The position numbers were made by a program, and so were the translations under genes. Of a DNA stretch of 10,704 nucleotides, positions 1,392-2,690 are shown in pieces (position 1 is the first letter of the stretch; every line of letters begins with the position of its first letter). The notes under the pieces were generated by a model. It was given only the letters and a program-made list of their open reading frames with translations. It ran no database searches and was not told the DNA's origin. Origin of the DNA: a virus (taxonomy: Duplodnaviria; Heunggongvirae; Uroviricota; Caudoviricetes). Where the stretch lies: IMG/VR virus record IMGVR_UViG_2698536392_000007. One strand, written 5' to 3'.

Positions 1392-1477
1392 CCGCGCAGG
1401 TTAACTACCTGCAGGAGTACATCAGGACGCAATGCCTGAAATAATTTTTTTTGCAAATCACAAAGTCCATTTAATGA

Positions 1478-1500
1478 GCCTCGCGATGCGGGGCTTTTTG
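1478..1500 (+). terminator. Intrinsic terminator after the lysis cassette (first of a tandem pair)
   Basis: Stem GCCTCGC (1478-1484) / GCGGGGC (1488-1494) with one G-U pair and a 3-nt loop, followed by TTTTT (1495-1499). Confidence 0.5.
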
Positions 1501-1506
1501 CAATAA

Positions 1507-1531
1507 ATGCGTACCGCAACGCATGTTTTTT
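1507..1531 (+). terminator. Second intrinsic terminator after the lysis cassette
   Basis: Stem ATGCGT (1507-1512) / ACGCAT (1519-1524) with a 6-nt loop, followed by G then TTTTTT (1526-1531). Confidence 0.45.
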
Positions 1532-1646
1532 ACACCGAACCTGCCCCTTTGGAATGGGCCTTTGAGGATACCAGTTAGTGCTGGCGAGCCTCGGTGGGCT
1601 GGTTTCCTGTGCGGCAAAGGTTCATTTCAAAGAGTAGGTACACGCT

Positions 1647-2144
1647 ATGAAATCATTAACCCTCTTCAATCAACCAATCCGTATCGGTGAAGATGGCATG
1701 ATCTGCCTCACTGATATGTGGAAAGCCAGTGGTAAAAGTGAATCTGAATCTCCGTACCACTACCTGCGAAACAAGCAGACCAAAGAGTTCTTGGCTGAGC
1801 TGGAGAAAAACCACGAATCTGTGGTTTTTACGGAACGCGGTGCGCACGGTGGAACTTATGGCGGAAAGTTCGTTGCTTATGATTACGCAGCATGGCTAAA
1901 CCCCGGATTTAAATATGCAGCCTATAAAGTCCTCGATGATTACTTCACCGGAGAGCTTCATCATCGGAACAGCTTAAGTGCGCAGCTCAACATGAAATGT
2001 CATGAGTTTGATCAGAAAAAAGACATGGCGAGCTTCTGTGGACAAGGCCTCGCGGCATGGCGCTACACGAAACCTGGTTTGATCGCTGAAATTAACTCCC
2101 TGGCTAACCAGTTGCAGATTTCGATCCCCGGGCTTCCGGGATGA
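1647..2144 (+). CDS. KilA-N domain protein (DNA-binding, APSES-type fold), function unknown
   Basis: 165-aa ORF with the KilA-N signature as I recall it: LTDMWKASGK ... ERGAHGGTYGGKFVAYDYAAWLNPGFKYAAYKVL, matching the RGG..GT...A.EFA.WLSP.F pattern. A short C-terminal extension of about 60 aa follows. G+C is low (about 25 of 60 nt at 1647-1706 by hand count). Confidence 0.8.
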   Translation: MKSLTLFNQPIRIGEDGMICLTDMWKASGKSESESPYHYLRNKQTKEFLAELEKNHESVVFTERGAHGGTYGGKFVAYDYAAWLNPGFKYAAYKVLDDYFTGELHHRNSLSAQLNMKCHEFDQKKDMASFCGQGLAAWRYTKPGLIAEINSLANQLQISIPGLPG

Positions 2145-2398
2145 GTGATCGTGTCATTGAATGCGCCTCCAGAGCGGGGCGCGACTTCTCAGAGTTCATG
2201 AAAGGCGAGAAGGGTATGATGGAAGCATTGGCCTCGGTGGATGAGTTTGGCGAGCAGCTGCGCCTCAACGGCTGTGTCAATCATCACTTTGTTAGCTACA
2301 TGATGCGGAACTCGATCATGCAGGCATTCATGGACATGGCAAAAGCCGAGAGGAAAGAAGAGCGCCGGCGTAAGCGAGCGGAAGCAAAAGCGAAGTAG
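2141..2398 (+). CDS. Hypothetical 85-aa protein, translationally coupled to the KilA-N gene, with a basic C-terminal tail
   Basis: Its ATG overlaps the upstream stop (ATGA at 2141-2144). The predicted protein is helical-looking and ends KAERKEERRRKRAEAKAK. I recognise no family. A hairpin lies just downstream at 2407-2428. Confidence 0.6.
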   Translation: MSDRVIECASRAGRDFSEFMKGEKGMMEALASVDEFGEQLRLNGCVNHHFVSYMMRNSIMQAFMDMAKAERKEERRRKRAEAKAK

Positions 2399-2690
2399 CC
2401 ATTACAAAGCCCATCTACTGGTGGGCTTGATAATGGCTTATACCCTACACGGGATAACTTAACTGATATCCCTTTTAACGGATAAAGGTATTCAAGCCTG
2501 ACACATCATGCGCTGTATCGTCGCTGTATTTCCGCATTAACCATGACCGTAGCCCGACGGGGAATTCCTTCTGCGCGAGTGTGCGGGGATAATCAAAAAC
2601 GATACACACCGGGGTTTACCGCGTTAACGGAGCGCGGCGTTGTCCCCTCATAGTCGCCTGTCCGGTACGATGGTGGAAGAAACCGAACGT

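Follow-up and report, generated by a model that had tools for sequence, protein, structure and literature searches.

A mobile KilA-N gene pair behind a conserved, pseudoknotted leader RNA in the late operon of a lambdoid prophage

The stretch of DNA considered here (IMG/VR record IMGVR_UViG_2698536392_000007, 10,704 nucleotides (nt), hereafter the window) represents the late region of a lambdoid prophage. Between its lysis and packaging genes, at positions 1476–2437, lies a small cassette that, on balance and with some reserve, is probably a late-transcribed, translationally throttled regulator module of the Rha type. It has four parts: a 5' control unit, a presumed DNA-binding protein with KilA-N and ORF11CD3 domains, a putatively coupled protein of 85 amino acids (aa), and a stable 3' hairpin. 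The anatomy of the cassette, the domains of its proteins and its mobility are shown here, as are a leader RNA whose helices covary and its link to genes of the domain-shuffling Bro network (KilA-N, Rha, Ant, Bro and T5orf172 genes, with KilA-N, Bro-N, pRha, ANT, T5orf172 and related domains). The two protein genes, ordinary in sequence, are not a discovery, as they have been annotated since HK620 (hkbK/hkbL) and HK97. No functional study of the pair was found in the searchable literature, and a search for a paper on 'hkbK' returned nothing relevant. As far as could be found, what appears to be new is the rule that the 85-aa gene accompanies Bro-network genes, its relation to T5orf172 fusions and, above all, the pseudoknotted leader that is predicted to sequester the Shine-Dalgarno (SD) sequence. 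Conservation or dyad symmetry upstream of the gene may partly have been noted already for HK620 or rha.

A pseudoknotted leader RNA ahead of Bro-network genes

Comparison of the 260 nt upstream of the KilA-N start codon across loci delimited a conserved unit at 1476–1646, composed of a terminator, a small hairpin (P0) and a leader of about 115 nt that runs up to the ATG. Its parts follow in the order GC-rich hairpin with T-run, spacer, P0, A-rich stretch and leader, and this architecture recurs in quite different genomic contexts despite divergent sequence. All elements lie on the plus strand. P0 (1507–1531) pairs 1507–1512 with 1519–1524 around the loop ACCGCA and is followed by six U residues; the stem-loop at 1507–1524 (-6.9 kcal/mol) recurs in almost every copy, the U6 tail only in the window type. 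The leader proper folds into a long hairpin (1539–1639) made of a basal helix P1 (1539–1564 with 1615–1639), an upper helix P2 (1565–1576 with 1597–1608), a 6-nt bulge on the 3' side (1609–1614) and an apical loop. Immediately 5' of it, CACCGA (1533–1538) pairs with TCGGTG (1591–1596) in the apical loop, forming a pseudoknot. An SD-like UAGGU (1635–1639) is paired in the base of P1, just ahead of the start codon at 1647. The window hairpin has a minimum free energy of -48.7 kcal/mol (z-score -3.0), and each leader type forms a long imperfect hairpin (z-scores -2.1 to -4.8). The SD region is predicted to be paired with a mean probability of 0.74, and at least three of its four nucleotides are paired in the minimum-free-energy structure of 18 of the 23 leader types, a type being a group less than 85% identical to every other. 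A K-turn in the bulge was considered and dropped for want of a consistent fit. Rfam 15 holds no match to the leader: a cmscan of the whole window at E ≤ 1 gave nothing in 1445–1650 and only a chance snoRNA match at 5082–5125.

The fold is supported by covariation. A covariance model (R1) built from 11 variants scores the window leader at 80.3 bits (E = 1.7e-13). Across 43 distinct sequences the 17 modelled pairs are formed in 90.7% of cells, compared with 27–42% when partners are slid, and double changes occur in 15 of the 17 pairs, as many as in none of 500 shuffles. In the leader helices G-U cells number 73 and A-C cells 9; this excess indicates that the structure is strand-specific and therefore belongs to the sense-strand RNA. 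The pseudoknot was scored by a helix search in each sequence followed by a partner-swap permutation, which replaced column counts on alignment A3 because of register shifts between types. All 23 leader types have a helix of 5–8 bp that joins the 5' flank to the apical loop in its 3' part, in at least nine distinct compensatory versions (including CCCGAG/CTCGGG, CGAGAG/CTCTCG, CCAAGAG/CTCTTGG, CACAGAA/TTCTGTG, CCACAGA/TCTGTGG and CCACCGA/TCGGTGG), and swapped partners never match the score of the own partners in 5000 permutations (p < 1/5000). The stem of P0 is compensated as well (GCGC/GCGC, GCGCC/GGCGC, TGCGT/ACGCA, GTGC/GCAC), with GCGC/GCGC in P22 becoming GCGT/ACGC in the window. Compensated helices, strand specificity and a fixed distance to the start codon, as expected of a structured cis-regulatory RNA, are thus found together.

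These observations bear directly on a different view of the upstream region, in which the leader would have no function as RNA and would act as a DNA boundary for homologous recombination that shuffles cassettes among lambdoid phages. Nearly the same leader indeed stands before unrelated genes (KilA-N here, rha in P22, a homing endonuclease gene in Klebsiella phage RothC), the same gene can follow different leader types (the KilA-N proteins of the window and HK620 are 93% identical), homology breaks at the ATG, and boundary sequences have been proposed for HK620 by Clark et al. in 2001, as cited in PMC3029335. However, drift is compensated in three helices and in P0, the G-U cells outnumber the A-C cells in a strand-specific way, and the base of the hairpin always covers the SD sequence. 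A role in recombination is compatible with a role as RNA and cannot by itself explain the compensated helices; as the sole function of the leader we regard it as very improbable, while the leader may also be a recombination 'socket'.

A search with the covariance model found 58 leader copies in 70 loci (39–106 bits), with two copies in some genomes. Each copy terminates in the ATG of an open reading frame (ORF). The products encoded downstream are pRha, pRha with ORF11CD3, KilA-N with various C-terminal parts, ANT and T5orf172/MUG113 fusions, and further HNH_3+AP2 endonuclease-like proteins, TerB-like proteins and a few of no assigned kind. All copies are co-oriented with the late genes and most of them directly follow Rz, the others being located between Q and the holin gene or among tail genes. 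The copies between Q and holin precede HNH_3+AP2 endonuclease-like and TerB-like genes (L082 1018–1128, L184 11112–11222, L120/L126/L180 and L224 2490–2603), in the slot that stx occupies in Shiga toxin (Stx) phages, and several phages carry two copies. In one locus from a G+C-rich host genome (L095), a T5orf172 fusion and a KilA-N+P63C gene are located among tail genes, each behind two terminators and a different repeated leader (about 3880–4000 and 4600–4723; CTGCAGGATAGG...CCTTTCCTGCA), which may be an analogous element of another lineage.

The leader is shared with rha. That of P22 rha is about 95% identical to the window-type leader, which is also found in BTP1 and ES18, ahead of genes annotated as rha or as regulators, and phi80 rha is preceded by a copy scoring 101 bits. 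The gene rha (orf201) of P22 belongs to the late operon, harms lytic growth when integration host factor (IHF) is missing and is regulated by IHF (PMC4936722), and the phi80 record annotates rha as 'DNA synthesis inhibition in IHF- hosts'. In both phages the annotated rha start falls inside the leader hairpin, at 2246 in P22 (L223) and 43739 in phi80 (L225), compared with model ATGs at 2315 and 43775. The ATG at the 3' end of the leader, which has an SD sequence before it, is 23 codons (P22) and 12 codons (phi80) downstream of the annotated start, and the deposited N-termini of both proteins are probably too long. A search of the DNA for the IHF consensus (WATCAANNNNTTR, one mismatch allowed) gave 8 matches against an expectation of 6; the only one in the leader lies over the start codon, and the search was rejected as evidence.

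Phage leaders that sequester an SD sequence include the lambda N leader and the T7 RNase III sites. Like these, the leader described here is a long imperfect hairpin with an asymmetric bulge in a polycistronic transcript, the base of which occludes the next ribosome-binding site (RBS). It differs from them in its unrelated sequence and in having a pseudoknot between 5' flank and apical loop and P0, neither of which is known from those leaders. A more ambitious proposal is that the leader represents a new class of trans-responsive riboregulator, riboswitch-like or operated by a protein, that gates the translation of Bro-network, HNH/AP2 and TerB accessory genes in late operons of enterobacterial temperate phages and is the cis element behind the IHF control of rha; as it stands this is speculative and on balance unlikely. 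In its boldest version the arginine-rich tail of the 85-aa protein would bind an RNA hairpin of the cassette, in the manner of lambda N and boxB, and feed back on expression.

The KilA-N protein and its 85-residue partner

The first gene of the pair (1647–2144, plus strand) encodes a 165-aa protein of the HK620 hkbK type. The first-pass annotation of this DNA, made from the letters alone, had recognized this ORF and its KilA-N domain, an ATGA-coupled ORF after it and the Arg/Lys-rich end of the second product, and all of these hold. KilA-N (PF04383) matches residues 9–101 with 58.4 bits against a cut-off of 23.8 (E = 7e-16). That annotation had overlooked a second domain, ORF11CD3 (PF10549), which occupies the C-terminal third (residues 109–161, 47.5 bits against a cut-off of 25, E = 2e-12) and is a C-terminal module of the Bro network. 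The protein belongs to PHROG 129 'transcriptional regulator' (E = 1e-60), and PHROG 518 'Rha-like' matches its C-terminal residues 108–163 only. Phage_pRha (PF09669) gives no Pfam match at E ≤ 0.01, and Pfam finds no ANT, P22_AR or Bro-N domain. An AlphaFold2 model (mean predicted local distance difference test, pLDDT, 83.5) has an N-terminal beta/alpha domain with a beta-hairpin and helices, and shows the ORF11CD3 part as a helical hairpin (helices 86–131 and 134–156). A Foldseek comparison of the KilA-N model with the PDB gave nothing below E = 0.5; the APSES domain of Mbp1 is among the best structural neighbours, weakly (E = 0.9). Sequence searches of the PDB revealed no relative of either protein of the pair, and NCBIfam has no match for either. 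The family of the 165-aa protein is enterobacterial; Stx phages 2851 and 1717 encode the protein with 100% identity and HK620 with 93%. Natural chimeras also occur (P0148), in which a pRha N-domain replaces KilA-N ahead of a C-terminal part of the window type (93% identity).

The second gene (2141–2398, plus strand) starts within the stop codon of the first (ATGA, 2141–2144) and encodes an 85-aa three-helix protein of the HK620 hkbL type. It had been put down as having no recognizable family; it belongs to PHROG 875 (E = 3e-54), and Pfam has no match for it. The AlphaFold2 model (pLDDT 92.3) consists of helices 3–20, 26–42 and 48–84, the last of which bears the Arg/Lys-rich tail, and its structural matches are generic only. 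The protein ends in ...KAERKEERRRKRAEAKAK (residues 66–85, window 2336–2395), a tail that presumably recalls RNA-binding peptides rich in arginine, for instance the one at the N-terminus of lambda N. The gene has conserved RNA hairpins on its flanks. A Cys2His2 metal site, suggested by the invariance of C8, C45, H48 and H49 in alignment A1, was dropped: P0122 has a serine for C8, and the T5orf172 fusions have lost the set. The family is very narrow and comprises 138 clusters at 90% identity, all from Enterobacteriaceae; a profile search among 1.84 billion proteins found 21 representatives, and a scan of species-representative genomes yielded 7 loci only, which therefore also confines the family to Enterobacteriaceae. 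A first scan of viral contigs gave 80 loci with identical 85-aa proteins and is informative on context, not on diversity. The few distant relatives consist of the N-terminal 60 or so residues of the 85-aa protein fused to a T5orf172/MUG113 domain. These fusions sit behind the same leader and in the same late-operon slots as the window pair, whereas the window protein has no T5orf172 domain and ends in the Arg/Lys-rich helix.

The second gene is strictly linked to its upstream neighbour. In each of 92 loci the gene directly 5' of the 85-aa gene encodes a KilA-N protein, either of the 165-aa ORF11CD3 type with the ATGA overlap or of a 242–268-aa P63C type with a 2-nt gap; the P63C type accompanies the 85-aa gene in HK97, HK022 and mEp235. 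In more divergent loci it is preceded by pRha or pRha+ANT genes, in the arc/ant region beside the tailspike gene, where its homologues directly follow P22_AR_N/Bro-N antirepressor genes and pRha+ANT genes. The 85-aa gene thus always directly follows a Bro-network gene (KilA-N+ORF11CD3, KilA-N+P63C, pRha or pRha+ANT), and its product accompanies, as an optional partner, Bro-network proteins with no N- or C-terminal domain in common. The pair is 100% identical in genomes of Shiga toxin-producing Escherichia coli (STEC) and is also found in Stx phages 2851 and 1717, in P22-like Salmonella phages and in HK620; in Klebsiella phage RAH1 and in Enterobacter asburiae it lies between tail genes. The 85-aa family is present in 57 of 50,697 phage records. 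With the cassette at three late-operon sites, the pair is therefore accessory and mobile: it is a horizontally mobile cassette and not a core gene, in agreement with the accessory role suggested earlier.

HK620 has the same pair, hkbK/hkbL, in the same slot, with protein identities of 93% and 100% (residues 1–66), and differs in its leader type. HK97, HK022 and mEp235 keep the 85-aa gene (HK97p61 in HK97), the leader and the 3' hairpin, and differ in having a 242-aa KilA-N protein with P63C instead of ORF11CD3 and a 2-nt gap in place of the ATGA overlap. The slot itself is shared with rha: in P22 and phi80 the order is Rz, terminator, a leader of about 110 nt in common with the window, the gene and then the packaging genes, and many pRha genes behind the leader bear ORF11CD3. 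The N-domain of their Rha is Phage_pRha, whereas that of the window protein is KilA-N, and P22 and phi80 rha have no 85-aa partner gene. KilA of P1 resembles the window protein in its KilA-N domain alone (28–29% identity over residues 17–127). It has another C-terminal part and is encoded in the lytic replicon region of P1, with no such leader or partner.

The resemblance to P1 KilA raises the idea of a killer and its antidote, in which the KilA-N protein would be toxic and the 85-aa protein would neutralize it. A related record calls kilA a 'putative host killing protein', deregulated Rha is inhibitory, the two genes are tightly coupled in translation, and tight control by a leader would suit a toxic product. 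Yet neither protein matches a toxin or antitoxin family in Pfam, NCBIfam, PHROGs or PADLOC, the partner is missing beside several KilA-N+P63C genes and all short pRha genes behind the same leader, and the proteins encoded upstream of it share no N- or C-terminal domain, which ill suits a specific antidote. On these grounds a killer and antidote pair appears quite improbable.

A different role is suggested by the arc/ant homologues. The pair could be an antirepressor module, in which the KilA-N protein, with or without its partner, would inactivate the repressors of co-resident heteroimmune prophages or satellites late in infection, or block the re-establishment of repression. The homologues of the 85-aa gene that follow P22_AR_N/Bro-N and pRha+ANT genes are located in the 'ant moron' of P22-like phages (PMC2629481), relatives are annotated as antirepressors in records, and STEC genomes are rich in lambdoid prophages, with query matches at a median of 2 and a maximum of 18 places per genome. 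Such annotations are nevertheless based on domains only, a late-operon timing would be odd, and the window protein carries none of the ANT, P22_AR and Bro-N domains. An antirepressor-like role is the main alternative for the activity of the protein, with Rha as the best analogy; as an account of the whole cassette it seems rather unlikely.

Flanks, composition and genomic setting

Both hairpins that had been noticed upstream of the pair are real. The first (1476–1500, stem 1476–1484 with 1488–1496) resembles an intrinsic terminator and forms the 5' boundary of the unit: the hairpin at 1476–1496 with its U-run has -13.7 kcal/mol and a z-score of -3.2, and none of 200 shuffles is as good; the second is P0 with its U6 tail. 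A hairpin with T-run occurs within 80 nt 5' of the leader in 39 of 45 distinct contexts, with differing hairpin sequences, which suggests that the terminator is kept in the unit by selection. A scan of 1–3700 found 11 terminator-like sites, with 3.5 expected. The picture of a terminator-flanked insert holds on this 5' side and is not confirmed on the 3' side. Of the two hairpins described there, 2407–2428 is only the core of a larger one of 16 bp (2398–2437, -26.3 kcal/mol, z-score -7.75), which lies directly 3' of the 85-aa stop codon, has no U-tract and closes the shared cassette on its 3' side: position 2435 is where homology to Salmonella P22-like phages, HK97, HK022 and mEp235 stops. The other (2451–2480) is present as well; it is a weak hairpin with UUUU (2451–2476, -8.3 kcal/mol, z-score -3.3), outside the cassette proper; HK620 and HK97 have it in the DNA upstream of their next gene (hkbM type), with homology to these phages reaching 2486, just 5' of the RBS and ATG of that gene. 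The terminator scan called neither of the two hairpins. Directly after the cassette hairpin, HK620, HK97, mEp235 and P22 carry a conserved non-coding segment of about 170–220 nt (L003 3795–4012, L004 2797–2956, L223 about 2850–3015) that the window lacks cleanly (junction 2431–2437), with GATAATG and GACAATG as short repeats on the two sides. This segment may represent a small RNA or a further boundary element.

The pair had also been taken for a low-G+C insert. Its G+C content is 0.497 and that of the lysis cassette 0.499; the whole region singled out in the first-pass annotation (1445–2480) has 0.489, the 85-aa gene 0.535 and the head module 0.575. The 60-nt hand counts on which the earlier claim rested (0.417 and 0.667) are arithmetically correct yet unrepresentative, and the contrast arises because the head module is G+C-rich, not because the insert is A+T-rich. 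A simple consensus scan of the plus strand of 1–3700 found no sigma-70-like site, a test that a weak or non-sigma-70 promoter could escape. A sigma-70 promoter in the spacer between terminator and P0 was considered separately and rejected, no -10/-35 elements being recognizable on inspection of 45 variants.

These data weigh on the view that the pair is a classic moron, the layout put forward in the first-pass annotation, with its own promoter, expressed from the prophage and serving lysogen defence or superinfection exclusion, for instance by abortive infection. Morons, in the definition reportedly given by Juhala et al. in 2000, are extra genes between genes that are adjacent in related phages. 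The slot fits this, being occupied by rha in P22 and phi80, by the KilA-N pair in the window and by other genes elsewhere, so the accessory and mobile half of the description stands; an own promoter, deviant composition and expression independent of late induction are not supported, as the scan gave no promoter-like site and the G+C content equals that of the lysis genes. For a defence moron speak also the hairpins on both sides of the pair, the cargo that the slot carries in lambdoid phages, and a PADLOC match (E = 1e-8) between the KilA-N region and PDC-S22, a candidate system. That match spans only 31 residues of the shared domain, and the DNA upstream of the pair is an SD-hiding leader common to late-operon genes such as rha.

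One model for such a defence is BstA, a phage protein with an N-terminal KilA-N-like DNA-binding domain that mediates abortive infection from prophages (PMC8585504). The window protein is likewise phage-encoded, has a KilA-N-like N-domain and would have an accessory role. BstA, however, is about 307 aa long, has its own C-terminal domain, is encoded beside the repressor, is expressed in lysogens and contains an internal anti-BstA DNA element, none of which applies to the window pair; instead there is a 165-aa protein with ORF11CD3 as C-domain, encoded in a late operon far from the repressor locus, for which PADLOC gives only PDC-S22. The anatomy thus gives no support to a BstA-like, lysogen-expressed defence, and a defence moron is decidedly unlikely.

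The cassette is embedded in a typical lambdoid late region. Upstream are genes for a P21-type holin (307–513), a lysozyme (513–1010) and Rz with embedded Rz1 (1007–1444); downstream, 2399–2690 (about 290 nt) is without an annotated gene and is followed by a minus-strand DUF3950/YlcI-YnfO gene (2691–2951), an HNH endonuclease gene (2933–3298) and genes for the small terminase (from 3586), the large terminase (from 4146), a protease-capsid fusion (from 5871) and the portal (from 8020). Positions 1400–2950 are 100% identical to several STEC chromosomes and 97–99.7% identical to Stx phages 2851, 1717 and JLK-2012. In the identical prophage of strain 2013C-3342 the cassette is located in the late operon, 3' of Q, three tRNA genes and the lysis genes, with the repressor gene about 11 kb upstream of the pair.

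Several features of the neighbouring genes can be added. In the window, T1322 creates a TAA nonsense codon in Rz and shortens the i-spanin from 145 aa to 105 aa, and in the embedded Rz1 it changes Glu to Asp; the base at this position is G (GAA, Glu106) in phage 2851, in HK97 and in the prophage that is otherwise 99.9% identical. The DUF3950/YlcI-YnfO gene lies on the opposite strand within the late operon; by this orientation it would qualify as an independently expressed moron more readily than the KilA-N pair does. It is annotated as 2691–2891 in the identical prophage, and the ORF as listed (2691–2951) runs into the beginning of the HNH gene (2933). An IS3-family element (L001 13618–14795, corresponding to window 3005–3010) splits the HNH endonuclease gene in strain 2013C-3342, the window copy of this gene being intact, and the portal gene of that strain is annotated as frameshifted; the same prophage therefore decays differently from strain to strain.

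A proposed late regulator under translational control

A leader that is co-oriented with the late operon and hides the RBS favours Q-dependent late transcription combined with translational throttling. In the mechanism proposed here, the cassette would have no promoter of its own. Polymerase modified by Q would read through the terminator and transcribe the cassette together with the late operon, whereas unmodified polymerase would halt at the terminator. The leader would then hold translation of the regulator, a presumably dose-sensitive DNA-binding protein, low on a highly abundant late mRNA, or make it conditional. Processing by RNase III, known from other phage leaders, is a candidate for what opens the leader. 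Once made, the 165-aa protein might act like Rha, that is, as a non-essential late regulator that becomes harmful to phage growth when its control fails, and the 85-aa protein may be an optional partner that modulates or assists the KilA-N protein.

Several points weigh against this reading. Late-only transcription, repression of translation by the leader, and an activity like that of Rha or of an antirepressor are all steps that we infer. The sequestration of the SD sequence is predicted from thermodynamics. For the nested helices, covariation was counted on an alignment that was fitted to the model, and a pseudoknot that joins the base of a hairpin of about 30 bp to its tip would require a sharp bend at the bulge of 6–7 nt, a presumed geometry. 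The promoter scan was a crude consensus test, which a weak or non-sigma-70 promoter could escape. The 165-aa protein has no pRha domain, so the parallel with Rha would rest on the shared slot, the leader and ORF11CD3; the growth block in IHF-deficient hosts is a phenotype of Rha and could be extended to the 165-aa protein by analogy only. Finally, the 85-aa gene is missing beside some KilA-N+P63C genes and all short pRha genes, and the partner is therefore not required for the class.

Bro-network genes are among the commonest and least understood genes of temperate phages and their satellites, with several copies per STEC genome, and a shared, portable RNA control element provides a handle on them. 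The interest of the protein pair lies in its strict linkage to these genes. The leader corrects the likely start codons of P22 and phi80 rha, and it marks the accessory-gene 'sockets' of late operons, which would aid the annotation of prophages. It may also supply a concrete cis element for the 40-year-old Rha/IHF phenotype of phi80 and P22. If control by the leader is true, it would account for the presence of the gene for a potentially harmful DNA-binding protein on the strongest transcript of the phage.

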